DNA from: Bacteroidota bacterium
GTDB lineage: Bacteria; Bacteroidota; Bacteroidia; AKYH767-A; OLB10
Direction: 5' to 3'
NCBI GenBank assembly: GCA_024643795.1
Contig: JAHEMF010000009.1
Span: 15,955-79,954, forward strand
Length of the DNA: 64,000 bases
The translations under genes were made by a program, and so were the position numbers. Under the pieces are notes generated by a model. The model worked only from the letters and a program-made list of their open reading frames with translations, was not told the origin of the DNA and made no database searches. Position 1 is the stretch's first letter; every line of letters begins with the position of its first letter. Positions 1-61,616 of the stretch are shown here, piece after piece.

Positions 1-984
1 TTAATTGAAAGAAGAGCTGAGTCTATTATAAATACAACTGTTCCTGCCAACACGTTAAGAGTAGTAACACCTGCTAATTTACCATATGAACCATATACTC
101 CTAATATTCCACAAACTACCGGAATAGCATTCCTTATCTCATTATTTATGGCTACAATAATAGGACTATTTCGCACATCCAAGACCGTTAGTATCAAGAC
201 AAGGCAGGAGCTTGAGTCGGAAACAACTATTCCATTCATTGGTAATATTAAGAAAGATAAACACTCCAATTCAAGTTCTGTAGAATCATTCAGTGAGATT
301 TGTACTCGTTTGTTAATGAGAAACGAAACCCGTGATTCTCAAGTAATTACAGTAACCTCAACTCTTGCCGGAGAAGGAAAAACATATGTTGCAACCAACC
401 TTGCTAAATCGCTTGCAGCCATTGATAAAAAGGTGTTACTGATTGATATGAATATCAGAAAACCTGAATTAAATAAATTATTTAATATCACTTCCCAATA
501 CACTTTAGCAGATGTACTGGATAGTAGAATTAACATCCACGAAGCGGCAGGAATAACATCAATACCAAACCTGGAAGTTATAAACGGAGGTGAATTTAAA
601 TCAGGTATTAACTCACTCTTAACATCTGGCAAAACTTCTGAAGTGTTGAATGAATTGAAAAAACATTACAATGTTATCATCATTGATACGCCGGAAACTG
701 GAACATATATAGATGCTGTTCCCTTGATGAGAATGAGTGACCTGAGTTTATATGTTGTGAAGGCAAGTGCAAAAACAGATAGTCAAGTTATCAACGCTGA
801 ACTTATCTGTAAAGATTACGACATCCATAATATGCACATAGTATTGAATTCCGTGAAAACAACCCACAATCATGCGGGTTTAAGCCGAACCGGAACCTAT
901 AAATTGCCGGTATATTCTGAAGGGCATGAAATAGTTGGTGAACAACATGGATTTCTCCGCAAAATTGCACTGTGGTTTTACTAA
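1..984 (+). CDS. Polysaccharide biosynthesis tyrosine autokinase (Wzc/CpsD-like), C-terminal part; 5' end lies outside the window
   Basis: Frame 1 is open from nt 1 and reads ...VRVVTPANLPYEPYTPN... plus a TM helix, which is Wzc-like. The P-loop ATPase motifs are present: Walker A TSTLAGEGKT, A' LLIDMNIRKPE and B VIIIDTPE. The C-terminal tail is Tyr-containing. Confidence 0.8.
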   Translation, partial: LIERRAESIINTTVPANTLRVVTPANLPYEPYTPNIPQTTGIAFLISLFMATIIGLFRTSKTVSIKTRQELESETTIPFIGNIKKDKHSNSSSVESFSEICTRLLMRNETRDSQVITVTSTLAGEGKTYVATNLAKSLAAIDKKVLLIDMNIRKPELNKLFNITSQYTLADVLDSRINIHEAAGITSIPNLEVINGGEFKSGINSLLTSGKTSEVLNELKKHYNVIIIDTPETGTYIDAVPLMRMSDLSLYVVKASAKTDSQVINAELICKDYDIHNMHIVLNSVKTTHNHAGLSRTGTYKLPVYSEGHEIVGEQHGFLRKIALWFY

Positions 985-1019
985 ATCATCCGTAACTTTG
1001 AACAGAAGTTATTGGATTG

Positions 1020-1793
1020 ATGCCTGAAGAAAAAATCCCCCACAGGAATCTGTTTTTAGATTCTTTTATCAAGTCCTCCTCTGATCTGGAAGTTATTTTT
1101 CTGAACCATTCTGGTTCACCTGAAAAGCTACTTACGGACATCCAGTCAATCGACCTTTTGGCCGAAAAGGAATATAGTGTTCGTACAATTGATCACATTA
1201 AAACTCATCCGCTTGTAGCAAAGGTGCGGGTAGTTCCACAATACCGCTACAGTGATGTTTGGGTAGAATTTAAAGATCACACAGCTCTTCGCTTTCGATT
1301 AATAAGAACACTCATACGTAGAGGTTTAAGATTTTTAACCCCTGCAGAGATCAGAGCCACCAAGACCATCAATAATTTTGGCATGCCAATTCCATCAGAA
1401 GGGATTCATTTTGAGTATCTTATACTGACTGCACAATTCAATAAGATCCACCTTGCCGATCGGTATCGCAATCACTTTAATTCACTTGAATTCAAAAACC
1501 GGTCTGAGATATTTGGTCACATCCATCAACGATTAAGCCTAGTTATTCACAAGCTGGACGATCTCTATGAATATAGTTCAAGTATGCTTTTCCGAATTAC
1601 AGTAGCGTTACGAAAAAGAAAAGGGAATTCACTTTTACGGTTAGTGTTTCGATTAACAGAACAAGCTGCTTTCGGATTAACTAAAAATCTCTTTTTCAAG
1701 GAACAGATTTTCCAATCGCAGTATGTTCCGGTGCCACCTGTCGAAAAGGATTCGACTAAGAGTGAAATCCAAACTGGTACTACAGGAATATAG
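1020..1793 (+). CDS. Hypothetical protein (about 257 aa), co-directional with wzc
   Basis: Clean ORF. Position 1017 of the ORF track is a TTG, and the ATG follows at 1020. I recognise no motif. Confidence 0.5.
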   Translation: MPEEKIPHRNLFLDSFIKSSSDLEVIFLNHSGSPEKLLTDIQSIDLLAEKEYSVRTIDHIKTHPLVAKVRVVPQYRYSDVWVEFKDHTALRFRLIRTLIRRGLRFLTPAEIRATKTINNFGMPIPSEGIHFEYLILTAQFNKIHLADRYRNHFNSLEFKNRSEIFGHIHQRLSLVIHKLDDLYEYSSSMLFRITVALRKRKGNSLLRLVFRLTEQAAFGLTKNLFFKEQIFQSQYVPVPPVEKDSTKSEIQTGTTGI

Positions 1794-2103
1794 TTTTTTT
1801 GATTATCGGCCTGATCGCTTCAGCACAATAGTGCAATCATAAGGGCTAGTTTACCCTCCATACAACATCTTTTAAGTAAAAGAGCGTAAAATGCCTGAAA
1901 ACCTTACATCAACAAGAGGTTAGACATTGAAATTCCTTCAACCTTAACCCCTTGTTTATCAATATTTTAAACTATCCATAGGTTTGTAAAATTGATACAA
2001 AAGCAAGAATTCTTTCATCTGCAAGGTTCCGTGGTTATACAAAAAGCCTTTGTGCGGCCGCTATGTATAATACGGAGAAAACCAACAATCAACCTTGTAC
2101 CGG

Positions 2104-5061
2104 ATGAAAGCAATAACATGGCTTTTAATGATATTGATATCTGCAACTGCAGGAGCACAAACTGTAAGTACCGTAGCAGGAATTGCCGGTGTGGTAGGAT
2201 CAGCTAATGGCCCTGCTGCAACTTCTTCATTCAACAACCCGCATGGAGTTGCTTCAGACAAACAGGGTAATGTATATGTAGCAGACCGATATGGTCATAA
2301 GATCCGCAAAATAACACCGGCAGGTGTTGTTTCAACTATAGCCGGATCAAGTTCTCCGGGATTCACAAACGGACCGGGAGTAAGTGCTTCTTTCAATGAA
2401 CCATGGGCGGTAGCATGCGACACAGCAGGCAACATTTACGTTGCTGATGCAAAAAACTATGCGATAAGAATGATTACGCCTGGAGGTGTGGTCAGTACTG
2501 TGGCTGGCACAGGAACATTTGGTGTTACAAACGGTCCTGTTTCTACAGCACAATTTGGATTTCCTTCAGGCCTGGCGGTTTCGCCAAATGGACTAACCAT
2601 TTATGTGTGCGACCGGATGACTCACACTATCCGTAAAATCTCCGGGGGAAATGTTACTACATTGGCAGGAACTGCATTCTCTGCCGGCTCGGCTGATGGC
2701 ACAGGAGCTTTGGCCAGGTTTGATCACCCTTATTCAATTGCCCTCAGTGTACAAGGAAATATATTAGTTGCTGATGAATGGAATAATAAAATACGCCATG
2801 TAACACCTGCAGGAGTTGTTACAACTTATGCAGGGTCAGGTATACCAGGTTCAACCAACGGTCCGGCACCAACTGCTTCATTCAATGGTCCATGGGGTAT
2901 AACCGTAGCATCTAACGGTGAGGTATATGTGAGTGAAGGGAATAATTTCCTCATTCGACTTATTACTACTTCAGGAAATGTTACTACATATGCAGGACAA
3001 GATGGTGTTCCGGGGTTTGCTAACGGACCTTTATTGCAAGCCACATTTAATGGCGTTAGTTCTATGTGGTATGATTCAAATGACGGTACTATTTATCTTT
3101 GTGATCCATACAGTCAGTTAGTTAGAAAAATAGGAGCTTCAGCTCCACCACCATTAACTTTATCATCATCTGCAATAAATAATAATGTTTGCAATGGAAG
3201 TAATGTTACCGTTACTGCTGTTCCATCAAACCTTGTTTCATACACTTTTTATGAAGGTCCGAATGTACTTGGAACTTCTTCAAATGGAAGTATTGTTCTT
3301 ACCGGATTATCGCAGGGAAACCATACTATTACATGTTCAGGTACCAATTCTCAGGGGCAGACTGTTAATTCTAACTCGCTGGTTTTAAACTTCTTACCAC
3401 CTCTTTCAGTAAGCATTACCGCTAACGGACCTACAACTTTATGTCCGGGCGATTCTGTGCAACTCAGCGCAACCAATGGTACGAGTTACATTTGGTCCAA
3501 TGGCGCAGTAACTCAAAACATTTATGCTACAGGTAATAACACTTATACTGTAACCATAACCGATGCAAATAGTTGTTCGGGCATTTCAAATTCACTGCAA
3601 ATATCAGAATTGCAAGCTCCAACCGCTTCTATCACACAAACACCATCCGGTCCAGTTTGTACGGGTGACACAGTAACTCTAGTAGCAAGCAGTGCTGTTT
3701 CTTGGCAATGGTCAACAGGGGCTACCACACAATCCATATCAATAATTGGTAATGGAAATTATACCGTCCTGGTAACAAACAATGCAGGTTGCAGTGCTAT
3801 TTCTTCACCGGCAAATATTTCTTACTTGCCACAAACTAATGCATCAATTAATCCTTCTGGATCCATATTGATCACACCAGGTCAAAGTGTTTCCTTGTCA
3901 GCAAACAATGGAACAGGTTATGCGTGGTCTAACGGAGCAACAACACAAAATATTAATATCTCCAATCCTGGCACATATACAGTAATCGTTACAGACCCCA
4001 ATGGGTGTTTGTCAACTCCCGCAACTGTCAACATCACGTTACAAGATCCGGCTACCATGGCTATAGCATTAGGTTCCACAAACATTTGCGATGGAGATTC
4101 TGTAGAAATATTATCCTCATTCCCAACTGGTAATCAATGGTTTAGGAATGGCATCGCTATTTCTGGTGCTACAGCTCAAACATTTTATGCTAAACAATCA
4201 GGAGCATATTATCTAAAAGTCATTCAGGCAAATGGAGGTCCTGATCTATACTCTGATACTATTAACATATCGATAATAGTCTTACCATCTACCATCACAG
4301 CTATTGAGGATTCTGCATGCAAAGGACAGCCGGTCTATTTAAGCATTACTCCACAATCGGGGATAACATATTCATGGTACGATCAACCAACAGGTGGAAC
4401 CCTACTTACCACAGGATCAAGCTTTACCACGCCGGCATTAAACGGGTCACTTACCTTATACATAGAGTTATCCGATAACAATGGCTGTGTAAAAAATAAC
4501 CGATTCAACATTACTGCATTTCAATTGGAAACACCTGTAGCAGATTTTGTGAATAATAATGCACAACCTGTCAGTGGCGGTTTTCAGATATCTTTTCAAG
4601 ACGCAAGCACATTTGCCGACAACTATTTTTGGGATTTTGGTGAACCAGGTTCATCAGGCAATACATCAACAATTTCCAGTCCATCACATATATACGCTAA
4701 CGTTGGAGACTATTTGGTTACTCTAACAACTACCAACAATTCGGGTTGTTCAGATCAGATACTCAGAACGATATCGGTTAATAGAAGCAATAACATATTC
4801 ATTCCCAATGCATTTACACCAAATAACGATGGGAGTAACGATCTGTTCAGAGTTCGTGGAAACAACATCGCATATTATGATCTAAGCATCTTCAGCTCCT
4901 GGGGACAACGGATCTGGTTCTCACCAAAAGAGACCACAGGATGGAATGGAACAGTCAATGGGGATTTGGTTCCGAATGGAACATACTCTTATGTGGTTGA
5001 AGTGTTTTTTGAAGATGGCAACAAAGAATTGTATAAAGGAAATATAAGTGTTATCAGGTAA
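2104..5061 (+). CDS. Secreted NHL-repeat beta-propeller protein with tandem Ig-like repeats, a PKD domain and a T9SS type-B C-terminal domain (gliding motility-associated CTD)
   Basis: Signal peptide MKAITWLLMILISATAGAQ. Six NHL repeats ending in the YVAD..IRKI pattern. About seven repeats of roughly 85 aa of the form C.G..V.L.A...YxWSNGATTQ. A PKD-like DFGEPGSSGNT...YLVTLTTTN segment. The C-terminus NAFTPNNDGSNDLFRVRG...YSYVVEV is the type-B CTD signature. The track start at 2095 is a TTG. Confidence 0.85.
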   Translation: MKAITWLLMILISATAGAQTVSTVAGIAGVVGSANGPAATSSFNNPHGVASDKQGNVYVADRYGHKIRKITPAGVVSTIAGSSSPGFTNGPGVSASFNEPWAVACDTAGNIYVADAKNYAIRMITPGGVVSTVAGTGTFGVTNGPVSTAQFGFPSGLAVSPNGLTIYVCDRMTHTIRKISGGNVTTLAGTAFSAGSADGTGALARFDHPYSIALSVQGNILVADEWNNKIRHVTPAGVVTTYAGSGIPGSTNGPAPTASFNGPWGITVASNGEVYVSEGNNFLIRLITTSGNVTTYAGQDGVPGFANGPLLQATFNGVSSMWYDSNDGTIYLCDPYSQLVRKIGASAPPPLTLSSSAINNNVCNGSNVTVTAVPSNLVSYTFYEGPNVLGTSSNGSIVLTGLSQGNHTITCSGTNSQGQTVNSNSLVLNFLPPLSVSITANGPTTLCPGDSVQLSATNGTSYIWSNGAVTQNIYATGNNTYTVTITDANSCSGISNSLQISELQAPTASITQTPSGPVCTGDTVTLVASSAVSWQWSTGATTQSISIIGNGNYTVLVTNNAGCSAISSPANISYLPQTNASINPSGSILITPGQSVSLSANNGTGYAWSNGATTQNINISNPGTYTVIVTDPNGCLSTPATVNITLQDPATMAIALGSTNICDGDSVEILSSFPTGNQWFRNGIAISGATAQTFYAKQSGAYYLKVIQANGGPDLYSDTINISIIVLPSTITAIEDSACKGQPVYLSITPQSGITYSWYDQPTGGTLLTTGSSFTTPALNGSLTLYIELSDNNGCVKNNRFNITAFQLETPVADFVNNNAQPVSGGFQISFQDASTFADNYFWDFGEPGSSGNTSTISSPSHIYANVGDYLVTLTTTNNSGCSDQILRTISVNRSNNIFIPNAFTPNNDGSNDLFRVRGNNIAYYDLSIFSSWGQRIWFSPKETTGWNGTVNGDLVPNGTYSYVVEVFFEDGNKELYKGNISVIR

Positions 5062-5065
5062 GCAT

Positions 5066-6985
5066 ATGAAGAGAACTTTACTTCACATATTCACGCTTTC
5101 ATTGTTCTTGCCTGCATTAAGTGTAGCTCAGGACGCAAGGTTTAGTCAATATTATAATAACCCATTGCTCTCAAGCCCTGCAATGGCCGGGAATGGGATT
5201 GAATACATCCGGGTAACCGCAACATATCGCAGTCAATGGGCAGGCCTGGGTAAGCCATTCAGCACTCAGGGTTTATTCGTTGATAAGGTTGTATCACGTG
5301 TAGGAATAGGCGGATACATAGTTCGTCACGGTGCAGGAGATGCTGGAATAAAAACCATACAAGCAGGAGGTAACTTTTCATACAACCTACCTGTGGGATA
5401 TGAAAAAAACAACACAATAACAGGAGGCATTCAGCTTGGATTGCTAAATAAAAGTTTTGATCAATCGTCCTTAACATTTGATAATCAATATACTCCGGAT
5501 GTAGGATACGATCCAAATATTGCATCAGGAGAATATTTTGCCAATACAAGTATCACAAGGCCGGATATCAGCATTGGATTTATGTGGCAAAGAGGATGGA
5601 CAAATAAAGACATCCGCTTCAAGCCATATGCAGGTATATCTTTTGCGCATGTGAATAAACCTAAAGAGATTTTTATTGAAGAGGCTGCAGTGCATCCAGT
5701 AAAAACAACGTATCATTTAGGTGCAGCATACCAGCTAAACGAAAAGACAGAGATCAGGCCCAGTCTTCAGGCTATGAATCAAGGTCCGTTTACTGAAACA
5801 ACTTTTGGAACAATGCTTTCCTATACTTTGCCAAATGAAAATCATGTACAGCTAGGCGTTTATGACAGAGTTAATGATGCTGTAATTGCCTATGCAGGAT
5901 ATCAGGTCAATCAGCTTATGCTGGGATTTTCATATGATGTTAACACATCTGCTTTGAGCACATCGGGCAAAGGCGTTGATGCTTTTGAACTTTCACTAAC
6001 GTGGTCGCCTAAACCCAAACGTAAGAAAACTCCAAAAGAAATTGAAGATATAAAAGAGAGTATTAAGCCACGTGAAAAAGTAGACATCAGTATCGAAGAA
6101 TCCATTGAGGTAACTTCTATTGAATTACCTGAAGATTCACAACCGGAGTTGGCACTGGAGCCATCAGCCAGGATTATAATTCCTGAAAAGGTAGCGCCTG
6201 AAAAGGAGCCTATTGAAGAGGCTATCATGCTGGATACCACACCTTTAAATATTGCGCCTATTGAGATTGAGACCATAGCAGAGTTTATACCAGATGAGAT
6301 CCCTGAAAGAGAATCGATCTCGATAATGGATAAGACTGTTACAGATCAGCTAGCTGTGAATTCCGGTATGGAAATCGCATCTGATCCGGATGTTGTTGTC
6401 AACACCGAGTACATTCCTGCCAAACCTATTGCAGTAGAAGATACCGACCAGGATGGCGTGAATGATGAACAGGATGAATGCCCATTCATATTTGGCAGTC
6501 CCGCAACACACGGTTGTCCGGATTCTGATAATGATGGCATCATAGATCAGAACGATGATTGTCCGATGGATGCAGGCACACTTGCCTTGAATGGTTGTCC
6601 GGAAAAAGAGCTTTCAAAAGAAGCCGCAACAGGTCAAACCACCATCAAGAGCTTTAATAACATACTGTTTGATACAGGGCGCGACAAGCTAAGAACTGAT
6701 GACATTTTTGAAATCATTGAAAGAGCTATAGACCTTATGTATGCCAATCCTGATGCACAGGTTATTTTGTCAGGACATACTGATTCAGAGGGTGATCCTC
6801 GCAGTAATATGTATTTGTCTCAGGCAAGAGCCAACATTGTAAAGAAATATATGATGAAGCAAGGTGTTGAAGAAGACCGTATAAGTATTGTAACATACGG
6901 AGAAAGTATGCCTCTTGTGAATAATAAAACAGAAGAAGGGCGTCAGCAGAACCGTAGAGTAGAAATAAACATAATTAGGAAATAA
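5066..6985 (+). CDS. PorP/SprF-family T9SS membrane protein fused to thrombospondin type-3 Ca-binding repeats and an OmpA C-terminal peptidoglycan-binding domain
   Basis: N-terminus FSQYYNNPLLSSPAMAG...RSQWAGLGKPFST matches PorP/SprF. TSP3-like DTDQDGVNDEQDECP and DSDNDGIIDQNDDCP. OmpA C-terminal domain NILFDTGRDKL...SGHTDSEGDPRSNMYLSQARA...NRRVEI. The track start at 5048 is a GTG; signal peptide MKRTLLHIFTLSLFLPALSVAQ follows the ATG at 5066. Confidence 0.85.
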   Translation: MKRTLLHIFTLSLFLPALSVAQDARFSQYYNNPLLSSPAMAGNGIEYIRVTATYRSQWAGLGKPFSTQGLFVDKVVSRVGIGGYIVRHGAGDAGIKTIQAGGNFSYNLPVGYEKNNTITGGIQLGLLNKSFDQSSLTFDNQYTPDVGYDPNIASGEYFANTSITRPDISIGFMWQRGWTNKDIRFKPYAGISFAHVNKPKEIFIEEAAVHPVKTTYHLGAAYQLNEKTEIRPSLQAMNQGPFTETTFGTMLSYTLPNENHVQLGVYDRVNDAVIAYAGYQVNQLMLGFSYDVNTSALSTSGKGVDAFELSLTWSPKPKRKKTPKEIEDIKESIKPREKVDISIEESIEVTSIELPEDSQPELALEPSARIIIPEKVAPEKEPIEEAIMLDTTPLNIAPIEIETIAEFIPDEIPERESISIMDKTVTDQLAVNSGMEIASDPDVVVNTEYIPAKPIAVEDTDQDGVNDEQDECPFIFGSPATHGCPDSDNDGIIDQNDDCPMDAGTLALNGCPEKELSKEAATGQTTIKSFNNILFDTGRDKLRTDDIFEIIERAIDLMYANPDAQVILSGHTDSEGDPRSNMYLSQARANIVKKYMMKQGVEEDRISIVTYGESMPLVNNKTEEGRQQNRRVEINIIRK

Positions 6986-8067
6986 TGGTCCTGAGTAAAC
7001 TACTTCACTTTGTTTTGCCTTTTGGGCTGGCCATGATCATAACATTTGTACTCACACCATTTTGGATCTCTGTGTGCCGAAAGTGGAACTTATTTGATGA
7101 GCCTGATAACAGAAAGCATCACCAGCATCTCACTCCTAGCATGGGAGGTATAGCACTCTTTGCAGGACTGATCATTTCATTTTTATCATTTTCGGAAATT
7201 GAAGATTACTCAAAAATGCAGTATTTATTGGGCGGTTTGGTGATATTGTTTTTCACGGGATTTTTTGATGATCTGATGAACATACCGGCAGCTAAGAAAA
7301 TGTTGTTTCAGCTTGCCGCAGGGGCAATTATATACTTTGGCGGATTTAGGTTAGATCTATTTCCAGGCTTCGAATCATTTGGAAAAATACCAGATGTATT
7401 TAGCTTTCCCCTGACATTGTTTGCAGTAATAATGTTTACGAATGCTTATAATTTCATTGATGGGGCTGATGGCTTGGCATGCAGTATTGGGCTTATAATA
7501 TCGGCATCTTTGGGTATGGTATTTTTGATATTAGGACGAATAGATTTTGCAACAATTTCATTTTGTCTGACCGGGGCCCTTCTTGGATTCTTATTCTTCA
7601 ATTTCCAACCCGCAAAGATCTTTATGGGCGATACGGGGTCATTAGTAGTAGGCTTTTTATTAATTGTTCTTGCCCTGGAAGCAATACAAAGCACTGCCAT
7701 AACATCAGATGTGGCTATTAATCCAAGTCTCATTTATGCAATTCTTTTTGTGCCAGCATTTGACCTGGTACGGGTTTTTGTTATCAGAGTAATGAATGGT
7801 GACTCTCCACTTGACGCTGATAGAAATCACTTACATCATCTTGTTATGAAGAATGGTTTTGGCCATGGTAGTACCACAATATTAATTTGCCTTTACACAA
7901 CATCCGTTATATCGTTACAACTTACACTTCTGTCACATATGTCTGTGATTTTGTTTTTGATGATAGTATCTGTTTTTTCACTTTTAGTCATGAATTCAAA
8001 AGTCCTGGGGCTGCTAGCACAAATTAGAGATTGGGCGCTTTCAACGATTTCATCAGAAAAGATCTGA
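6985..8067 (+). CDS. Glycosyltransferase family 4 (WecA/MraY-like undecaprenyl-phosphate HexNAc-1-phosphate transferase)
   Basis: Polytopic membrane protein with the NAYNFIDGADGL motif and FDDLMNIP. Its ATG overlaps the preceding stop (TAATG). Confidence 0.8.
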   Translation: MVLSKLLHFVLPFGLAMIITFVLTPFWISVCRKWNLFDEPDNRKHHQHLTPSMGGIALFAGLIISFLSFSEIEDYSKMQYLLGGLVILFFTGFFDDLMNIPAAKKMLFQLAAGAIIYFGGFRLDLFPGFESFGKIPDVFSFPLTLFAVIMFTNAYNFIDGADGLACSIGLIISASLGMVFLILGRIDFATISFCLTGALLGFLFFNFQPAKIFMGDTGSLVVGFLLIVLALEAIQSTAITSDVAINPSLIYAILFVPAFDLVRVFVIRVMNGDSPLDADRNHLHHLVMKNGFGHGSTTILICLYTTSVISLQLTLLSHMSVILFLMIVSVFSLLVMNSKVLGLLAQIRDWALSTISSEKI

Positions 8068-8097
8068 TTTTGTAATTTGGCGCATTCACATCGAACA

Positions 8098-9486
8098 ATG
8101 CGCAGAATACTTCTACTCTCGATACTGTTACTAACAGCCACTTCCTCAGGAGCGCAAAATGCTACTGATTCATTGATTATTAGACAGATACATGATTTTT
8201 CATTGGTAAATGGCAAAGCCTATGACTGGTTGAATCATATTTGTTTAAATATTGGCGGTCGGCTGGCGGGGTCTCCTCAATCTGAAAAAGCAATACAATA
8301 TACCTACGAGGTTATGGACAGCATTGTACCAGGCAATGTAAGTTTACAGGAGGTGATGGTCGTAAACTGGAAGAGAGGGGAAAAGGAAAACTGTTATACA
8401 ACAGATAAAAAGGGGAATAAAACTCATTACAGAATCACATCACTTGGTAATAGTGTAGGCACACCGTTAGATGGAATAACTGCACCTGTAATTAAGTTAA
8501 ATTCTTTTGCAGAACTCAACTCACTTTCAACAGCTGATGTGCAAGGTAAGATCGTTTTTTATGATGAGCCTATGGATCAACGGTTTATTAATTCATTTAG
8601 CGCATACAGCAGCTGTGGATCTATCAGATGGTACGGTCCAAAAGGCGCAGCTCCTCTTGGAGCTCTGGCAACCATCAACCGGTCGCTCACACATGCCTCC
8701 GACGACCACCCGCACACCGGAAGCATTGTGTACGTCGATTCCATTCCAAAGATCCCGGGGGCTGCAATAAGTACATCGGGAGCTGATTTATTGAGTAAGG
8801 CCCTGGCAGAGGATCCTGACCTGACCCTTACTCTGGAAATGGATTGTAAAATGCTGGACGATATTAAATCCTACAATGTTATTGGTGAGATCAAGGGAAC
8901 TGAACACCCCGAAGAGATCATAGTGGTAGGAGGCCATCTTGACGCCTGGGACAACGGAGGACAGGGTGCTCATGATGATGGTGCAGGCTGTGTACAGTCC
9001 ATGGAAGTTCTCAATATTTTTAATTCATTGAACATCCGTCCCAAAAGAACTATTAGAATAGTAATGTTCATGAACGAAGAAAATGGTGTTAGAGGTGGTA
9101 AAAAATACGCTGATAATGCAAAAGAAAAAAATGAAAAACATATCGCTGCAATTGAATCAGATGCGGGAGGTTTTTCACCGAGAGGCTATTATATGGATGG
9201 GGATGCAGACAAATTAAGTATGGTAAAAAAATGGATACCTTTATTTCAACCTTATTTACTACATAGTTTTGATCAGGTAGGAGGGGGTGCTGATATCAGT
9301 GGATTGAAATCGCAAGGCGCAGTTGTAATGGGGCTATATCCTGACTCACAACGTTATTTTGATTACCACCATGCCGAAACAGACACTTTTGATAAAGTAA
9401 ACAGAAGAGAGTTACAGTTAGGTGCTGCGGCTTTGGCATCTATGGCATACCTGATTTCAGAATATGGCCTGGATAATATTCCTTAA
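8098..9486 (+). CDS. M28-family zinc aminopeptidase with PA domain, secreted
   Basis: GGHLDAWDNGGQGAHDDGAGC and NEENGVRGG motifs. Signal peptide MRRILLLSILLLTATSSGAQ. The track start at 8077 is a TTG. Confidence 0.8.
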   Translation: MRRILLLSILLLTATSSGAQNATDSLIIRQIHDFSLVNGKAYDWLNHICLNIGGRLAGSPQSEKAIQYTYEVMDSIVPGNVSLQEVMVVNWKRGEKENCYTTDKKGNKTHYRITSLGNSVGTPLDGITAPVIKLNSFAELNSLSTADVQGKIVFYDEPMDQRFINSFSAYSSCGSIRWYGPKGAAPLGALATINRSLTHASDDHPHTGSIVYVDSIPKIPGAAISTSGADLLSKALAEDPDLTLTLEMDCKMLDDIKSYNVIGEIKGTEHPEEIIVVGGHLDAWDNGGQGAHDDGAGCVQSMEVLNIFNSLNIRPKRTIRIVMFMNEENGVRGGKKYADNAKEKNEKHIAAIESDAGGFSPRGYYMDGDADKLSMVKKWIPLFQPYLLHSFDQVGGGADISGLKSQGAVVMGLYPDSQRYFDYHHAETDTFDKVNRRELQLGAAALASMAYLISEYGLDNIP

Positions 9487-9524
9487 TAATCTTCATTTCA
9501 TTTCCCCACTATCCCGTAAGGAAA

Positions 9525-9935
9525 TTATTCCATAGTACTCCGAAGTTTTTTTAATTCTCCGCGCAATTTTTTTTGCCGCAACCTTGATTCGTCAGCCGAC
9601 TTTGATTTCACTGTAGATTTGCGAACCTTTTGCTTTTTTAATGCAGTATTAATAAGAGCAGCAAATTTATCCAGCACTTCCTTTCTGTTCACATATTGAG
9701 TTCTGCCAGAAGATGCAACTATTCTAATTAAACCTTGCCCTGATATCTTGTTGGCCAACCGGGTATTTAATAGCTCCTTGGTTTTTGCGTCGAGGAATTT
9801 TGAGTTGATAATATCAAAATATAACTCAACTCTTGTTGCAACTTTATTAACGTTCTGCCCGCCCTTTCCACCACTTGTGATAGCTTTTAGTTTACATTCC
9901 GTAAGCAAGTTATGTATCAAGCCTTCGTTTATCAT
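9525..9935 (-). CDS. arfB: Alternative ribosome-rescue factor ArfB (peptidyl-tRNA hydrolase, RF-1 domain)
   Basis: SGGKGGQNVNKV GGQ motif, about 136 aa, basic C-terminal tail. Confidence 0.8.
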   Translation of the reverse strand: MINEGLIHNLLTECKLKAITSGGKGGQNVNKVATRVELYFDIINSKFLDAKTKELLNTRLANKISGQGLIRIVASSGRTQYVNRKEVLDKFAALINTALKKQKVRKSTVKSKSADESRLRQKKLRGELKKLRSTME

Positions 9936-10726
9936 ATTTTGATCTTGAATTGATCTCTGTCTTTAAGGAATGGCAGCCATTTCCGGTTTTTTACAACCTC
10001 TTCATGTTTGAGTATCACTGTTTCTATCCGGGAACTGCCGGACGGTAGTTTTTTAACATATCCCCCCAAAGGATCAATTATCGCTGAATCGCCTTTATAA
10101 GTGATTCCTAATCCATCCTTACCAACGCGGTTTACTCCCACAACAAAAGCAAGATTTTCAATAGCTCTTGCAATTAACAACTGGCTCCAAGCATGGCGCC
10201 TTCTCTCTGGCCAGTTGGCTATAAAAATGGCAAGATCATAATCACAATCGTTGCGAGACCATACTGGAAATCGGATGTCATAACAGATAAGCGGAAGGAT
10301 CGTCCAACCTTTCAATGAAACAATCAAACGCTTTTTCCCTGCTGTGTATACTTTGTCTTCTCCGGCCATCCCGAACAAATGCCGCTTATCGTAGAAGCTA
10401 ACTTTACCATCGGGGTCAACCCATACCAGCCTGTTGAAAAAGCTGTTCTTTTCTTTGATAACAAGGCTTCCGGTAACTACAGCCTTTTTACTTAAAGCAA
10501 TACTCTTCATCCACTGAATGGTAGGCCCATCCATACTTTCGGCCACTTCAGAGGCATTCATGGTGAACCCTGAATTGAACATCTCAGGCAGAACTATCAA
10601 GTCAGTTTCTTTAGGTTTCAGCCCAGAAAGACTTTTATGGAATTTAGACAGGTTTGACTCCCTATCTTCCCATACTAACGAAGATTGCACAAGTGTTATT
10701 CTGAGATCACTGTTGATCTTTTTCAT
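9932..10726 (-). CDS. Carbon-nitrogen hydrolase family protein (omega-amidase YafV-like)
   Basis: Nitrilase-superfamily fold with an E...K...C triad context (LPEMFNSGF, LICYD). It overlaps arfB by 4 nt (ATGA). Confidence 0.8.
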   Translation of the reverse strand: MKKINSDLRITLVQSSLVWEDRESNLSKFHKSLSGLKPKETDLIVLPEMFNSGFTMNASEVAESMDGPTIQWMKSIALSKKAVVTGSLVIKEKNSFFNRLVWVDPDGKVSFYDKRHLFGMAGEDKVYTAGKKRLIVSLKGWTILPLICYDIRFPVWSRNDCDYDLAIFIANWPERRRHAWSQLLIARAIENLAFVVGVNRVGKDGLGITYKGDSAIIDPLGGYVKKLPSGSSRIETVILKHEEVVKNRKWLPFLKDRDQFKIKI

Positions 10727-17799: not shown

Positions 17800-20700
17800 C
17801 TACTGATGTGTGAGTTTAGAGGAATAGGTCTTTTCTCCGTCCGTGATCTGAATCAAATAAATCCCGCTACTTAAGATCGATTGATCAAATGTAAGTTTAC
17901 ATGCTATGTCATTAGGGTTGAATAGCCGCTTGTAAATAACTTTGCCTGATAGCTCATATACACACACCGTTATTTCTCTGTTGATAAGGTTTCCAAATAC
18001 AACATTAAGCTCGTTTTTAAATGGATTTGGAAATACAAAACTCACCAGGTTTTGGTTTGAAATAGTCCTTTCAAGTAATATTGAACCTGAGTATTTATAA
18101 TCCCCATTCTGGTCTATCATCTTCAGTCTGTAATAGTAAGACCTATCACCTTCAACCATGTCAACATATTGATAATTATTGGGTTGTGAGCTAAATCCGG
18201 CGGCCTTTACCGCAGCTATCTTTGTATAATCAACCCCGTTGAGTGACCTTTGAAGCTCAAAACCTGAACTATTCACTTCCGTTAAAGTTAGCCATTCCAA
18301 CACATTTCCTTCATCAATTACTTCGCCAGTAAATGAAACCAGTTGAACAGGTAGCGGACCATTTGTAGCTCCGAGGATCTGGAAGTCGTCTATAGCAACC
18401 CCAACTCCTGTCACAAAGGCGTCACTTTTAAACCGTATCCTAAACCCTACATTTGGGTTGCCGGCTAAAAACGAAATGTCATATTCACATAATGAAAAAG
18501 ATGATCTTGTTCCATTAAAAAATGGTTGATTGAGTGGAAATGCTGTTGTGTTTGTAGTGTTTGCAAAATCATACCAGTTTGCAGAAACTATTCCTAGCGG
18601 TGTCCATAATTCTCCTTTATCAAGAGTGTATTCTACAGTCATTCCGTCCCAACTTATCTCAAAAGAATTTTTTCTGTAAAACCTGAGTGTATAAGTTCCG
18701 GGTTGTGATAAGTTATAGTTAGGTGACCACAGTCGTGTATCAGTATTGTTGGCATAATTTGAGGCGGTTAAACCTGTTACCCATGCCGTAGAACCGGAGC
18801 GTGTTCCATTTTTGCCACCTATTGATGAGTTTCCTTGCTCGAATGATGTGCCATATGTTGTTTCGGACCCAAAGTCAAGTGGATTTGCTTCAAAATTTCC
18901 GCCAGCAGGCAGGTCATAAGGAGTGCCTCGGTTAGGTAAAACATGAATATATGAGGTTTTGGTTCTTGTAAAGGCCCCTGAACCATTTATCTGCAATGTA
19001 ACCGTGTAAAGTCCCGGATTTGTATAAGTATGAGACGGATTTTGGGTGGCTGAAGTATTCCCATCACCAAAGTCCCAATTCCATGCAATTGCCTTGTATG
19101 ATACATCAGAAAATGCGATCAGTTTACCGGTATAAGCAATCTGTTTATCAGATACAAACTCTGCATAGGGGTCGGAGAAGACATCCGAAGAGAATAATCC
19201 GCGACCATGTGTTGCTGCAATAACTAGCTTATCTGAACTCCGGATCTGAAGCATGTCTGTTCTTACATTAGCCATACCGTTATTAGATGGCCCCCAAACT
19301 GTTGCGCCACCCATAAGGTTGTCTGTTGTCCACGTTCCTAACTCTGTTGCTAACATAGCCTGTGTCGCATCATTTGGATTAAACAACGCCCATCGCACAG
19401 GCATATCAGGTAAATTTCCTTCCACGGAAGTCCAGCTTGTGCCACCGTTGGTGGTTTCCCAAACACTGGTTACACCATAGTTAGAATATGTTACTAACAA
19501 GTGGTTATCATTACCGTCTTCAATTGCAATACATGAAACACTACCGGAAGGCATGCTGCCTCCTGTAATATCTGTACCTGATGGAGAGGCTGTGTGCGCA
19601 TTATCAACTCTTACTACACGTCCATTTGAAATCCCAAAGAACACCCTGTTATTTGTATTTGGAGAAACGGACACATGTGTTACACTACCTCCTCCAAATG
19701 CTGCAACATTACGGCTATTTAATGCATTTGACGCTGGTGCATTGGCAAGAATATAGTAGTTGCCTGAGCCATTACGCAAATACATATTGTTGTTAGCGTT
19801 ATCATAATCTGACGGGTTTACAAATGCCCCATTGTTGTTGTTAGTTATCCTCGTAAAAGTGGCTCCGCTATTTGTTGATCTGTAAATGTTACTATACACA
19901 TAAGAAGTGAATTGATACTGCGGCTGATCCTGATCTATGTGTGTGAAACAACCATCGCCACCTGTAACTTCTACAGTTGAGTTGATACCAAGTGTACTAT
20001 ATTTTTGAGAGCCATTATCCTGTGCTCCGGCAATGAATTCAGAAGAGTAGGCCACAGGGCTCATAGAGCAAGCATAATACTGAGTAACATTATAGTTCTG
20101 GCTCACATGGCCAATTGAAGGTATTGATGCGGTTCCATTAGAAGATCGGTATATTCCACCATCGTTACCGAAATATAAAATGCTTGAGTTGCCTGGCTCA
20201 AAGCAGATCTCATGCTGATCGGCATGTACCTCCTGAAACCCAAACCCTCCATACCAATGGCTTATCTGTTGCCACGACCCTGCACCATTGGTAGATTTGA
20301 AAAGGTCAACTCCGCCTGCATAAAGTACATTGGAGTTGTTAGGGTCTACCGCAGCAGTAAGATCGTACCAGGCCTGTCCTCTTGTGAAATCAGCACCTAT
20401 GCCTGGGTCAGCGTCTGTCGGATTGGAGCGGGTAGACCAGTTAGCTCCGCCGTCAGTAGACCTGTAAATTGCTGATATTCCGTAACCGGTTCCCTGTGCA
20501 AGTGCATATATAACATTAGCATTAGATGGCGCACAAGCAAGTTCGATACGGGTAAAGCCAGTAGTTGGAAACCCGTTAGTGCCGTTATTTAGCTTGGTCC
20601 ATGCGCCAGAATTTCCGGTTGCGGATTTATAAATCCCGTCTGTTTGAAACAACCCTAACGCTACGTATATACTATTATCGGCTCCTATTTCAAGGTCGCT

Positions 20701-21519
20701 GACTCTGTTGCTGGACGCTCCAGATCCGGTATTAAGTACAGCGCTCCATGTTGTGCCCCCGTTTGTTGACCTGAACAATCCATTACGTGTTCCGGCATAT
20801 ACATCACCAGTTACCGGATGAACTTTTATCCTTTGTATGTAATAATAGTTGCCTGACGATGCTGTTGCAGCAAGTTGTGACCACGTGATACCGCCATCGG
20901 TCGATTTCCATATACCATTCCCTCTTATCGCATCACCATTAAAAAACCCTTCACCTGTTCCAAAATACATTGTAAGAGGATTGGTAGGATCATGCGCAAT
21001 ACATGTGATCGCAAGGTTATTAAAAAGGTCGTCCACCGGTTGCCAGTTTGGCGGAGTGGCAGTTATGTCTGTTGTCTTCCATAGTCCTCCACCAACACCG
21101 GCCGACCATACTGTCTTAAAAGTTGGGTCATTCGGGTCAACCATTATAGCTCTTGTTCGCCCGCCAACATTGTTGGGACCACGCTCAAGCCAGGTAACTC
21201 CAGGTATGGCGCCCATGGCTTTTCCGATCGCAGATTGTTCCTGAAGGCTTCGGGTATATTGATATGCCTGAATCAGTCGTTCCTTAGGTACTTCCAGAGT
21301 AGCAGGGTCGCGTGTTAATTCGATCTCCTGAAGGATCGCAAGATCCATTCTATCACGTAATGGGATTTCACTCTCTCCTTCTTCCCTATCCAAGCTTTTC
21401 GCATCCTTCTTAAAATCAATGCCTTTGGATGACTGGGGAGCATAAAAATCGATAATACCTGTCATAAAAACAGATATAATCAAGGCTGAAAGTGATATGG
21501 AATATTTAGAGGTTTTCAA
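17800..21519 (-). CDS. Secreted BNR/Asp-box repeat protein with PKD domain and T9SS type-A C-terminal sorting domain
   Basis: Multiple S-x-D-x-G-x-T-W Asp-boxes (STDGGITWS, STNGGTTWS, STDGGANWS, TTNGGTSWTS). PKD-like DFGDGNTSATQNPSHTYTNPGLYTV. CTD FVFPNPFKNELNVVF...GIYLIQI. Apparent TTG start followed by a plausible signal peptide. Confidence 0.8.
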   Translation of the reverse strand: MKTSKYSISLSALIISVFMTGIIDFYAPQSSKGIDFKKDAKSLDREEGESEIPLRDRMDLAILQEIELTRDPATLEVPKERLIQAYQYTRSLQEQSAIGKAMGAIPGVTWLERGPNNVGGRTRAIMVDPNDPTFKTVWSAGVGGGLWKTTDITATPPNWQPVDDLFNNLAITCIAHDPTNPLTMYFGTGEGFFNGDAIRGNGIWKSTDGGITWSQLAATASSGNYYYIQRIKVHPVTGDVYAGTRNGLFRSTNGGTTWSAVLNTGSGASSNRVSDLEIGADNSIYVALGLFQTDGIYKSATGNSGAWTKLNNGTNGFPTTGFTRIELACAPSNANVIYALAQGTGYGISAIYRSTDGGANWSTRSNPTDADPGIGADFTRGQAWYDLTAAVDPNNSNVLYAGGVDLFKSTNGAGSWQQISHWYGGFGFQEVHADQHEICFEPGNSSILYFGNDGGIYRSSNGTASIPSIGHVSQNYNVTQYYACSMSPVAYSSEFIAGAQDNGSQKYSTLGINSTVEVTGGDGCFTHIDQDQPQYQFTSYVYSNIYRSTNSGATFTRITNNNNGAFVNPSDYDNANNNMYLRNGSGNYYILANAPASNALNSRNVAAFGGGSVTHVSVSPNTNNRVFFGISNGRVVRVDNAHTASPSGTDITGGSMPSGSVSCIAIEDGNDNHLLVTYSNYGVTSVWETTNGGTSWTSVEGNLPDMPVRWALFNPNDATQAMLATELGTWTTDNLMGGATVWGPSNNGMANVRTDMLQIRSSDKLVIAATHGRGLFSSDVFSDPYAEFVSDKQIAYTGKLIAFSDVSYKAIAWNWDFGDGNTSATQNPSHTYTNPGLYTVTLQINGSGAFTRTKTSYIHVLPNRGTPYDLPAGGNFEANPLDFGSETTYGTSFEQGNSSIGGKNGTRSGSTAWVTGLTASNYANNTDTRLWSPNYNLSQPGTYTLRFYRKNSFEISWDGMTVEYTLDKGELWTPLGIVSANWYDFANTTNTTAFPLNQPFFNGTRSSFSLCEYDISFLAGNPNVGFRIRFKSDAFVTGVGVAIDDFQILGATNGPLPVQLVSFTGEVIDEGNVLEWLTLTEVNSSGFELQRSLNGVDYTKIAAVKAAGFSSQPNNYQYVDMVEGDRSYYYRLKMIDQNGDYKYSGSILLERTISNQNLVSFVFPNPFKNELNVVFGNLINREITVCVYELSGKVIYKRLFNPNDIACKLTFDQSILSSGIYLIQITDGEKTYSSKLTHQ

Positions 21520-21582: not shown

Positions 21583-21628
21583 AACGCCGGATTTAATACA
21601 TCCGGCGTTGAACTTTTTTCTAGTTTTT
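21583..21628. terminator. GC-rich hairpin with flanking A- and T-tracts (bidirectional intrinsic-terminator-like), just 3' of the OmpA-family gene
   Basis: Perfect 10-bp inverted repeat AACGCCGGAT-ttaatac-ATCCGGCGTT, followed by GAACTTTTTTCTAGTTTTT. Confidence 0.5.
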
Positions 21629-23773
21629 AAGAACCTTGAATTCAGTCCTTCTATTTTCCTGATGTTCCGATTCCGAACACTTAATTCCGTTGTGACACCT
21701 GTTGAGCAACAGCGATTCGCCATAGCCCTTTCCTGTTATTCGCGATTTGTCTATTCCGCCTTGATCAATAATATATTTAGCAGCCGACTTTGCTCTTTTG
21801 TCAGAAAGCGTCATGTTGTATTTGTCGCTTCCCCGGCTATCTGTATGAGAACTAAGCTCTATGATTATCTTAGGGTTGTCCATCATTACTTCGATGAGCT
21901 TATCGAGTTCTTTTGCTGCGTCTGAACGTATGTTCCATTTATCAAGATCATAATATATGTTATCAAGCCTGATAGGTTTGTTAATAATAAGTTTCTCAAG
22001 TACAAGATTCACTCGTTGAACTCCGGGCTCAACACCCCTTGTAGAAACCATCTGACTTTTTGCAAAATAACCATCATGAGAAGCCTTTATTCTGTAGGCG
22101 TTATCCGGTTCAAGTGCAAAGTAATAGTAGCCATCAGCCCCAACAGTTGCAGTGTTTAGTACCTTACCATCTGAAGACATTAATTCAACAAGAGAAGCAT
22201 CCAGGGGCATTCCTGTTTCTTTTGCTGATACCACTCCTTCAACAGCATATGTAAGCTGCTCAAGTTGGAAATCCTGTCGTAATGTTGTTGCAGGAGGATT
22301 AATTGTTGATACCGGAGCAGACGATTTTGAATATTGCGGCTTTGATGCTTCAACAATAAAATCTTTTCCGAATTCCAGTTCTGTACGGTAATTGCCTTCA
22401 GCATCGGTGGTTACCTTACCAATTTCCTTACCTTCTTTATCACGAACAGTTATAATCGCTTCAGCAATAGGCTCATTTGATTTTTTATCTGTAACAGTAC
22501 CTTCAAGAATTATAACTTTAAAGATCTGCACCGCATAAATGTCATCATCACCACTACCTCCGGGCCTGTTTGAAGAAATATAGCCGTCAGTACCTTGTTT
22601 GTTCAATACCAATCCGAAATCATCCTGACTTGTGTTGATTGGGAATCCCATATTAACGGGGCTTCCCCACTCCTCATTTTCAAATTTTGAATAGTAAACA
22701 TCCAATCCACCTAAGCCAGTATGGCCATTTGACGAAAAGTATAATGTTTTATCGTCGCTTACATAAGGAAAAAGTTCGTTGCCTTTTGTATTAACTGAGC
22801 TGCCTGCGTTTATTGCATCTCCCCAACCCCCTTCTTTTTTACGATCAGAATAGTAAATGTCCATACCCCCATAACCTCCGGGCATATCTGAAGTAAAATA
22901 TATCCTGCTGCCATCTTCAGTACAATATGGGTGAGCAACATTATATTGATCGCTGTTAAAGGGTAGATGTTCAACATCTTTCCACTTTCCTTCAACCAAT
23001 TTTGCTCTTACAATTTGAAGCTTAACAACTTTATCTTCTTTATTATTTACACCGCTGCTGTTTCTTGTAGTGTACATTTCTGAACCGCCATTGAACAAAC
23101 ATGCCGGCCCATCATTGAATTTTGATTCCAGATTTTCTGCAAATACAATTGGTGGTTCAAGCTTATCAAGCTTTCCTTTTGAATAATACAAAGCCAGGAA
23201 TGGTTTTCCGGTCCATAGGTGTTTTTTATCTTTCGCTCCACCTATCCTGTTCGAAACAAACACGATGCCATCGTTGTAAACAACCGGACTAAAATCAGCT
23301 TCAGGTGAATTTATACCAACCTTAAGTACTCTTGACCTTGCACTATCAGAATAGAACTGATCCATTTTTGAAAGCGCATCAAGAGCATGCTTGGCGCGTT
23401 CATCAAACATTGCCTTCATTGAATACTTGAGGTAAACATCCCTTGCAGTATCATAGTCGCCGTTGTACATCAACGATTGCGCGTAATAATACATTTCAAT
23501 GGACTGAGCATCCGGAAGTCGGCTTAGCTTACCATACATAGAAGCTGCTTTCCCGTGATCGTTGGTTAAACGATAACACTCGGCAAGCTTTCGCATTATC
23601 GTAACATTGTTAGGATCTGCAGAAAGAGACTTTTCATATTCAGGAATAGCCTTTGTATAGGCATACTCTTCATAGTATTTGTCAGCTTTCCAGGTGGGGT
23701 TTTTTTGCGAAAATGCATCACCTGCCATAAAAATATAGGTGGCAAGGAGGCATAAAAACAGGCGGTTCTTCAT
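21620..23773 (-). CDS. OmpA-family outer-membrane protein with TPR repeats, a TolB-like beta-propeller, a carboxypeptidase-regulatory-like domain and a C-terminal OmpA domain
   Basis: Signal peptide MKNRLFLCLLATYIFMAGDAFSQ. The TPR region begins near the N-terminus (EYEKSL...). WD40-like beta-propeller repeats. OmpA C-terminal domain NIYYDLDKWNIRSD...SHTDSRGSDKYNMTLSDKRA...RRTEF. The track start at 23788 is a TTG. Confidence 0.8.
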   Translation of the reverse strand: MKNRLFLCLLATYIFMAGDAFSQKNPTWKADKYYEEYAYTKAIPEYEKSLSADPNNVTIMRKLAECYRLTNDHGKAASMYGKLSRLPDAQSIEMYYYAQSLMYNGDYDTARDVYLKYSMKAMFDERAKHALDALSKMDQFYSDSARSRVLKVGINSPEADFSPVVYNDGIVFVSNRIGGAKDKKHLWTGKPFLALYYSKGKLDKLEPPIVFAENLESKFNDGPACLFNGGSEMYTTRNSSGVNNKEDKVVKLQIVRAKLVEGKWKDVEHLPFNSDQYNVAHPYCTEDGSRIYFTSDMPGGYGGMDIYYSDRKKEGGWGDAINAGSSVNTKGNELFPYVSDDKTLYFSSNGHTGLGGLDVYYSKFENEEWGSPVNMGFPINTSQDDFGLVLNKQGTDGYISSNRPGGSGDDDIYAVQIFKVIILEGTVTDKKSNEPIAEAIITVRDKEGKEIGKVTTDAEGNYRTELEFGKDFIVEASKPQYSKSSAPVSTINPPATTLRQDFQLEQLTYAVEGVVSAKETGMPLDASLVELMSSDGKVLNTATVGADGYYYFALEPDNAYRIKASHDGYFAKSQMVSTRGVEPGVQRVNLVLEKLIINKPIRLDNIYYDLDKWNIRSDAAKELDKLIEVMMDNPKIIIELSSHTDSRGSDKYNMTLSDKRAKSAAKYIIDQGGIDKSRITGKGYGESLLLNRCHNGIKCSESEHQENRRTEFKVLKN

Positions 23774-23905
23774 GAGAGTTAAGCTCAATAAATAGTTAAT
23801 TTCTAATTACTTATATCAATTCTATCGATTTTCACAGAATTTGATAAGTCCTTTAACTAAAAAATGCCTGAAAGGGTTACAGATTTGAACTTAAATGAAA
23901 AAATG

Positions 23906-38693: not shown

Positions 38694-38760
38694 GATACCT
38701 GACAAGATACAACTCCAATAAAGCCTTATCAATGACCGGGGTCATTTTTTCAAACAATGG

Positions 38761-41277: not shown

Positions 41278-41383
41278 ATAGATTAATACCCGGATATTGA
41301 ATATGAAAGGTAGCACATAATGCTGTCCGAGACAATTTTTTTCCGCCAACAGGCGTTTTTTTTTGGTGATGGTGGGCTGAGAC

Positions 41384-59344: not shown

Positions 59345-59431
59345 TTCATAAAAAGCTGTAGTATCAGATCGCTATCAGCTTTATAAATGTTTAAACCTAT
59401 CAGCCTATGTACAGCTGATGAATTTACTTGC

Positions 59432-61564: not shown

Positions 61565-61616
61565 TATCCGGATTTAAGGTGCCTAAATCTTTGATTCGGA
61601 ATAAATAGCAAGTTGT

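Follow-up and report, generated by a model that had tools for sequence, protein, structure and literature searches.

Cargo proteins of the T9SS (type IX secretion system) that bear a C-terminal domain (CTD) of type B require an SprF-like carrier encoded just downstream, and Flavobacterium johnsoniae has operons that combine cargo, SprF-like and PorE-like genes (PMC12618676, PMC9143113). Such cargo and its PorP/SprF carriers have been studied only recently, so far in F. johnsoniae and Porphyromonas gingivalis alone. In Fjoh_3952-3951-3950 of F. johnsoniae and PG1035-PorP-PorE of P. gingivalis, the PorP/SprF carrier gene comes directly after the type-B cargo gene, and an OmpA-type peptidoglycan-binding partner is proposed to render the complex static (PMC12618676, PMC9143113). 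In sprB-sprF of F. johnsoniae, the cargo gene precedes the carrier gene, export and anchoring depend on the carrier, and the periplasmic Cys-X-Cys tail of SprF is disulfide-linked to GldK on the moving track (PMC12635249). For type-A T9SS cargo, surface retention requires the initiator of a lipid-linked glycan, as described for WecA in Paraprevotella clara (PMC9477747) and for A-lipopolysaccharide (A-LPS) in P. gingivalis (PMC3684754). Here we analysed 64,000 nt of a Bacteroidota bacterium (contig JAHEMF010000009.1, positions 15,955 to 79,954 of the forward strand; hereafter the window), in which a type-B cargo gene and its PorP/SprF carrier gene directly precede a WecA-like transferase gene. 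In P. clara and P. gingivalis, PorU attaches type-A CTDs covalently to LPS and the genes lie apart from one another, whereas the cargo of the window is type B and its link to WecA is genetic only. The pairing of cargo and carrier is known, and WecA-dependent surface retention is known for type-A cargo only (PMC9477747); in the literature we searched, no link of a type-B cargo/PorP pair with WecA or with a glycosyltransferase (GT) operon is described.

Open reading frame (ORF) calls place six co-directional genes on the + strand of positions 1..9486:

1..984, + strand: C-terminal fragment of a Wzc-like gene, truncated by the window start, with a 35-nt gap to the next gene
1020..1793, + strand: hypothetical gene (hyp), from ATG, 257 aa
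1794..2103, + strand: 310-nt spacer between hyp and the NHL gene
2104..5061, + strand: NHL/Ig/PKD/CHU_C gene (the NHL gene), from ATG, 985 aa, with a 4-nt gap to the next gene
5066..6985, + strand: PorP_SprF + TSP3 + OmpA gene (the PorP gene), from ATG, with a TAATG stop/start overlap with the next gene at 6985
6985..8067, + strand: WecA-like transferase gene, PF00953, with a 30-nt gap to the next gene
8098..9486, + strand: M28 peptidase gene, from ATG

Domains were called with curated Pfam/NCBIfam models and their cut-offs. An initial annotation made from the sequence alone had given ORFs, junctions and domains that match the re-called ORFs and these models; its five genes are as it described them, but it had left out the sixth, the M28 gene. 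Its label 'GT4' for the WecA-like gene holds for Pfam Glycos_transf_4, the MraY/WecA family of polyprenyl-phosphate N-acetylhexosamine-1-phosphate (HexNAc-1-P) transferases, but not for CAZy GT4. The junction lengths of the window are kept in three relatives.

We favour, at somewhat better than even confidence, a reading in which these genes form two adjacent units, the second of which is a module functionally tied to a glycan and reduced from a glycan operon. Unit 1 would consist of the degenerate Wzc-like gene and of hyp, which would encode a small protein with a nucleotidyltransferase (NTase)-like domain. Unit 2, with an upstream element of its own, would encode the NHL type-B cargo, a PorP/SprF–TSP3/OmpA carrier-anchor, the WecA-like HexNAc-1-P transferase and the M28 peptidase.

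The NHL protein is composed of a signal peptide, an NHL beta-propeller (about 2164-3129), Ig-like repeats, an Ig_7 domain, a PKD domain and a CHU_C type-B CTD (about 4798-5058). CHU_C (PF13585) scores 60.6 bits against a cut-off of 27, and the type B sorting domain model TIGR04131 scores 59.2 against 35 over residues 902-988. A Sec signal peptide, read by eye from the sequence, is MKAITWLLMILISATAGA followed by QTV, with putative cleavage between AGA and Q; relatives keep the hydrophobic N-terminus, and their mature proteins likewise start with AQ-V-ST. On its sorting domain and signal peptide the protein qualifies as type-B CTD cargo, and T9SS- and carrier-dependent secretion is predicted. 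The propeller is its most conserved part, being 82–83% identical to that of close relatives and still 49–61% identical in the most distant ones, where the figure for the carrier is 34–44%, and it has hardly any indels. So strong a constraint points to a fixed ligand or to enzymatic activity and not to an adhesin that varies. The NHL protein has no lectin domain, and its matches in PDB, which are to generic NHL propellers only, give no support for or against a lectin role. At one related locus (L002, 5332..8284) the NHL gene is split by a frameshift near 5950, an assembly error or a pseudogene. The predicted cleavage leaves an N-terminal Gln in all three secreted module proteins (2104..2170, AGA/Q; 5066..5140, SVA/Q; 8098..8165, SGA/Q), and this fits the Bacteroidetes 'Q-rule'.

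The carrier gene encodes a PorP/SprF barrel (about 5126-6001), then a linker that is acidic and rich in Pro/Glu, two Ca-binding repeats of the TSP3 type (about 6437-6590) and, for peptidoglycan binding, an OmpA-like domain (about 6665-6955). The barrel matches TIGR03519 (PorP/SprF) at 179.8 bits against 90.55 and PF11751 at 144 against 22.3, and the OmpA domain scores 69.7 bits against 27.2. The initial annotation had paired this carrier with the type-B cargo, and the pairing is real, as in F. johnsoniae, with a 4-nt gap between the genes. The window resembles sprB-sprF in its order of cargo then carrier and, as predicted from the genes, in carrier-dependent export and anchoring. However, the window carrier lacks Cys-X-Cys and has a cell-wall anchor: when we inspected all its Cys residues, we found them only at positions 472, 484, 499 and 511, all within the TSP3 repeats, and no Cys-X-Cys tail. 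Because TSP3 and OmpA domains are present instead of that tail, the complex is predicted to be immobile and pinned to the wall. Compared with Fjoh_3952-3951-3950 and PG1035-PorP-PorE, the OmpA domain of the window is fused to the barrel through the long acidic linker and the TSP3 repeats, PorE's TPR, propeller and CarboxypepD_reg parts are missing, and WecA and M28 genes follow. With PorE the fusion has just the OmpA domain in common, and it does not have the PorE architecture (TPR + beta-propeller + CarboxypepD_reg + OmpA); the PorE model NF052230 scores 56 bits against 600. By analogy with F. johnsoniae and P. gingivalis, the NHL protein would be exported by Sec with a predicted mature N-terminal Gln and would then pass through the T9SS to its cognate PorP barrel, which its own OmpA domain would pin to the cell wall, so that one chain would act as a static anchor and do the job of both PorP and PorE. 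The PorP–OmpA fusion family comprises >110 clusters (90% identity) with both domains, and such a natural fusion offers a test of the idea that PorP and PorE form a static anchor. A separate gene with PorE architecture (TPR + PD40 propeller + CarboxypepD_reg + OmpA) lies elsewhere in the window (21620..23788, – strand), where its neighbours, also on the – strand, encode a Sortilin/PKD protein of 1239 aa that has a type-A CTD (17800..21519) and a protein with MORN repeats (23906..25432).

The WecA-like protein matches PF00953 at 134.7 bits against 27, and its translation contains FFDD, NAYNFIDGADGL (NxxNxxDGxDGL), MGDTGS (MGDxGS) and HLHH. At the equivalog level it falls short (TIGR02380, 164 against 326), so the match does not assign the identity of its substrate; from the family and motifs, it probably primes undecaprenyl phosphate with HexNAc-1-phosphate. 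The undecaprenyl-linked glycan so started would be tied to the NHL protein as its ligand, its substrate or its modification. The M28 protein (PF04389, 91.7 bits against 21.3) has a signal peptide with putative cleavage between SGA and Q, and the motifs HLD, HDDG, NEEN, SDAG and YHH are readable in its sequence. They would supply the di-zinc metal ligands of a secreted di-zinc peptidase. A role as glutaminyl cyclase was considered, given that the mature N-termini begin with Gln, and was rejected in view of the full set of di-zinc ligand motifs. The window contains three M28 genes (8098..9486, 27334..28872 and 34764..36029); the latter two are about 35% identical to the module copy or unrelated to it outside the M28 domain.

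To compare the module across relatives, we assembled 31 non-redundant PorP/OmpA loci by contig look-ups, a metagenome scan and ORF/BLAST labelling; their PorP proteins are about 25–60% identical to that of the window. The module is conserved across many uncultured Bacteroidota. The NHL gene directly precedes PorP in 26 of the 26 loci with visible upstream sequence (gap –4 to +7 nt; 27 nt in L119), WecA directly follows PorP in 24 of the 31 loci (gap –4 to +36 nt), and 17 of the 21 loci in which the position is visible have M28 after WecA. The NHL-PorP-WecA order is kept down to 34% PorP identity and amid differing flanks: at L092 it lies beside SprA, and L091, L100 and L113 have other flanks still. 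The distances of WecA and PorP co-vary (Mantel r 0.84, reached in 0 of 2000 permutations), which is consistent with co-inheritance. A genome scan with WecA gave 80 loci, two of which are true relatives (L002 and L003). The other 78 are WecA-homologue loci, most of them labelled Chitinophagaceae or Puia. A tblastn search of the sequence within 10 kb of them, with proteins of the window as queries, gave no match to wzc, PorP or M28; there was a lone OmpA-domain match at one of these loci and NHL-like matches at four.

Four of the related loci (L094, L116, L095 and L120) carry a co-directional glycan operon directly upstream of NHL, with a junction of –4 to +9 nt. It comprises genes for an APH-like kinase, a 434-aa protein whose C-terminal domain is thymidylate-kinase-like, a methyltransferase (at some loci), a WbbJ/WcaF-like acetyltransferase, two GT1 enzymes and a DUF1972-GT1. 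The last is related to the rhamnosyltransferase Cps2T, at 190 bits for NF046071 against an equivalog cut-off of 500, and the NHL–PorP pair thus lies between a Cps2T-like glycosyltransferase and WecA. In streptococci, WecA (GacO/RgpG) and GacB/Cps2T-type enzymes initiate rhamnose-containing glycans, with no T9SS genes known to be involved; the related glycan operons share with this system a PF00953 initiator and a DUF1972-GT1 as enzyme of the second sugar, with the match to the latter at 190 versus 500 bits. The four loci form two basal groups in neighbour-joining (NJ) trees of PorP and of WecA. At a further locus, L175 (1207..9401), we found a collinear operon of kinase/NTase, acetyltransferase, GT1, GT1, DUF1972-GT and WecA that lacks the NHL–PorP pair, and each of its genes is 37–54% identical to its L094/L095 counterpart. 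A synteny comparison of loci with and without the insert, proposed in the initial annotation, therefore has both kinds of locus to draw on (L094/L095 and L175), but by gene content the frame around the pair is a GT–WecA operon and not a Wzc–WecA operon. The proposal that the pair is embedded in a polysaccharide operon holds, in altered form, for the four loci with their glycan operon and fails in the window, which has no wza, wzx, wzy or further GT gene and in which the units are probably separate. The physical link to a WecA-initiated glycan pathway is thus recurrent, with loci that have the pair and one locus that does not; should the link prove functional, the dependence of T9SS surface display on glycans, known for type-A cargo, would reach type-B cargo as well. 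At L175 (1207..9401) and L174 (6933..13973), an 884-aa fusion (APH-like + hyp-like NTase-like + thymidylate-kinase-like) heads the GT-WecA operon and is divergent from mraZ of the dcw cluster. At L119, a reverse-strand DUF1972-GT lies immediately upstream of the NHL gene.

The hyp protein has no Pfam or NCBIfam match. A profile search with it found 207 relatives, many of which are 430 or 880 aa long and have the hyp domain followed by a thymidylate-kinase-like domain. When aligned with the N-terminal domain of the 434-aa protein of the glycan operon, hyp matches with an hhalign probability of 99.4% (E 9.5e-22), and it is homologous also to the fused 880-aa proteins that head related glycan operons. 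The window thus looks like a reduced descendant of the older glycan operon, in which the GT genes are no longer adjacent and hyp would be a truncated leftover of the first gene. The AlphaFold2 model of hyp is poor (mean pLDDT 52), and its top PDB matches are all nucleotidyltransferase folds with a TM-score of 0.2–0.35; an NTase-like fold is weakly indicated by the model, with a degenerate DxD motif (SIDLL). The relatives of ~880 aa have no family name in Pfam or NCBIfam.

Three short elements lie in the gaps on either side of hyp:

993..1000, + strand: TAACTTTG, a match to the Bacteroidetes –7 consensus TAnnTTTG in the wzc-hyp gap, 20 nt before the hyp ATG
2012..2025, + strand: CTTTCATCTGCAAG, a degenerate copy of a partly conserved palindrome
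2065..2075, + strand: GTATAATACGG, an 11-nt motif, candidate promoter or 5'-leader element of the NHL unit

Of four sequences compared, three have the perfect –7 motif TAACTTTG in the wzc–hyp gap, and L084 and L088 carry it unchanged. The L002 copy of the spacer palindrome is perfect (CTTACATATGTAAG). The motif GTATAATAC(G/A)G, with <=2 mismatches, occurs in each of the nine clade-A loci examined, 30–42 nt upstream of the NHL start, and is kept with or without another gene upstream. In eight of the 11 loci with wzc-like and hyp genes, a reverse-strand β-carbonic anhydrase gene stands between hyp and NHL; the window, L084 and L088 have no such gene and instead a spacer of 310–360 nt. Because of this intervening gene and the conserved motif upstream of NHL, wzc-hyp and NHL–PorP–WecA–M28 are probably two separate transcription units. 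The initial annotation had proposed one operon from wzc to wecA and had named separate promoters as evidence that would count against it. A promoter-like motif and an intervening gene do appear at the wzc-to-NHL junction, and wzc-hyp is missing from nine of the 20 loci with visible upstream sequence; at the NHL-PorP-WecA junctions no separate promoter is apparent, and this part of the proposed operon stands as tightly coupled (overlap or gap <=36 nt in the 24 of 31 loci). A scan of 1..10000 for sigma-70 promoters and intrinsic terminators gave counts at or below those of shuffled sequence and nothing at the junctions, and an Rfam scan of the same interval gave two sub-threshold chance matches, none in the spacer. 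TAnnTTTG is not enriched window-wide (56 found, 72 expected). A copy of it in the spacer (1979..1986) was considered as the NHL promoter and dropped, as it is not conserved. At L090 (5397..6036) the β-carbonic anhydrase gene is split in two, an assembly error or a pseudogene.

Several observations weigh against a glycan-linked module reduced from an older operon. The polarity from ancestral operon to window is read from a midpoint-rooted NJ tree and a single empty-site locus. The generic matches of the propeller lend no support to glycan binding or action by the NHL protein. The boundaries of the two units are drawn from spacing, from the gene that intervenes in relatives and from a motif of unproven function, and that motif resembles a sigma-70 –10 box, not the Bacteroidetes TAnnTTTG. 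At five loci (L093, L101, L104, L105 and L107) M28 directly follows PorP and there is no WecA, which makes WecA dispensable at this site. Finally, unrelated neighbours are also syntenic (RF-1, CN-hydrolase and aminotransferase, the last two convergent), so that gene order alone is weak evidence of a functional link. These last points are also what speaks for a neutral neighbourhood, in which the WecA-like and M28 genes serve housekeeping functions and simply lie downstream of an ordinary pair of type-B cargo and PorP genes in a slowly rearranging block with no functional link: the convergent CN-hydrolase and aminotransferase are conserved beside the module in most clades, the five loci have lost WecA and kept NHL-PorP, and WecA distances track PorP distances as plain vertical descent predicts. 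We consider this explanation rather unlikely. At about 35-60% identity PorP and WecA still share the stop/start overlap or are parted by a single-digit gap, the NHL-PorP-WecA order outlives a change of both flanks (L092, L100, L113 and L095), and four loci have the pair wedged, with overlapping codons, between two enzymes of one pathway, the GT of its second step and its initiating transferase.

Less probable still is self-glycosylation, in which a WecA-primed oligosaccharide would O-glycosylate the NHL protein or the PorP linker instead of forming a separate surface polymer. The related operons consist of an initiator, three to four GTs and modifying enzymes, and in the roughly 6 kb upstream there is no gene for a flippase, polymerase or exporter. 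This points to a short glycan, although flippase or polymerase genes may lie outside the fetched stretches. The NHL protein has six D[ST][AILVMT] motifs in its 985 residues, a count that may reflect chance, and the module has no oligosaccharyltransferase. We regard as similarly improbable, and place just after it, a more ambitious version of the module, in which NHL and PorP/OmpA would be the outer-surface part of a WecA-primed glycan pathway with no Wza, Wzx or Wzy in view, namely a T9SS-delivered, wall-pinned receptor, ligase or processing enzyme. Glycan display and type-B cargo would then be one machine, and the wzc-like and hyp products its degenerate partner at the cytoplasmic membrane.

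The Wzc-like gene, which the initial annotation had called a tyrosine autokinase, bears on the reading proposed there. The window holds the C-terminal 327 aa of a Wzc-like polysaccharide co-polymerase/P-loop protein that is about 746 aa long in the source genome. The bacterial tyrosine kinase domain model TIGR01007 scores 112 bits against a cut-off of 108, and Walker A (GEGKT) and Walker B (IIIDTPE) are intact. In an alignment to the kinase domains of BceF, CapB and Wzc, the Walker A′ DxD is absent (IDMNIRKP in the window, IDADMRRG in BceF, DGDMRKP in CapB); of the 12 distinct clade members examined, 11 read D-M-N at this position and L105 reads D-M-S. The C-terminal tyrosine cluster is absent as well, with 0-3 scattered Tyr among the last 30 residues of clade members. 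In contrast to these proteins, the most distant NHL-PorP/OmpA locus, the outgroup L119 (16035..19347), has 6 kb downstream a canonical Wza (Poly_export + SLBB) beside a Wzc with DxD (DMDIRRP) and a Tyr cluster (tail GYRKYAKYSYA). Because DxD and the tyrosine cluster are absent, 'autokinase' was an overstatement: the window protein is probably a Wzc-like paralogue without autophosphorylation, and the annotation 'Wzc' can mask a protein that lacks the kinase hallmarks. Where the tyrosine cluster would be, the clade has a strongly conserved end, (F/L)LR(K/R)(I/V)ALWF(Y/F), found in the window (FLRKIALWFY, 955..984), L002, L084, L088, L089, L090, L093, L097, L099, L103 and L105. On a short contig of the source organism, a divergent thioredoxin gene lies upstream of the 746-aa Wzc-like gene, as it does in seven relatives; beyond it lies mnmG in the relatives whose sequence reaches there, and also a methyltransferase gene. 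In the source genome and these relatives, no Wza/outer-membrane polysaccharide export partner adjoins the wzc-like gene, whose neighbours are thioredoxin and mnmG instead.

The flippase, polymerase, exporter and multi-GT cluster of a Wzx/Wzy-dependent locus is likewise absent from the 64-kb window, where we found no wza, wzx, wzy or ordinary glycosyltransferase gene beyond the WecA-like gene, and none of these within about 10 kb in close relatives. The sole glycosyl-transfer gene of the window besides the WecA-like gene encodes a 704-aa protein (43120..45234, – strand) that combines a PMT_2 (GT-C type glycosyltransferase) region at its N-terminus with TPR repeats at its C-terminus.

The adhesin RemA of F. 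johnsoniae, a type-A cargo with a lectin domain whose gene is not known to be linked to wza/wzc, reportedly depends for its function on a secreted polysaccharide, a finding ascribed to Shrivastava et al. in 2012. The initial annotation drew its analogy from there, and it does not carry over to the window, which has no wza, a degenerate Wzc-like gene and no lectin domain. Least probable among the explanations considered is accordingly the single wzc-wecA operon of that annotation, producing a lectin-like adhesin together with the Wzc-dependent exopolysaccharide (EPS) that it binds: the genes are co-directional with no predicted terminator in the 310-nt spacer, 11 loci have wzc-like and hyp beside the module, a gene of the ancestral glycan operon is related to hyp and the outgroup L119 has a canonical wza-wzc pair near its NHL-PorP pair, but wza, wzx, wzy and GT genes are absent from the window and the surroundings in relatives, DxD and the Tyr cluster are gone, a reverse-strand gene separates the units in most relatives that have both, NHL has a conserved element upstream and nearly half of the loci have the module without wzc. 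PEP-CTERM/exosortase EPS loci offer an analogy only: there, sorted surface proteins, including the NHL-repeat protein ScyF, lie among EPS genes with a Wzc-like kinase (TIGR03018), but the sorting system and the phyla differ, and the window protein scores 112 bits with TIGR03018, below the cut-off of 230.

Elsewhere the 64-kb window holds housekeeping genes and encodes many T9SS cargo proteins of type A. The products of three tandem paralogues, 708-725 aa long (57185..63743, + strand), each have Peptidase_M43, PKD and a type-A T9SS sorting domain, and more type-A cargo genes lie at 32323..33579 (HmuY-like), 37443..38732 (Reg_prop) and 38761..41349 (Ig_7, with a weak lysyl-oxidase match). On the – strand, positions 28878..31370 encode an 830-aa fusion of the middle and C-terminal domains of a Mur-ligase with a complete alanine racemase.

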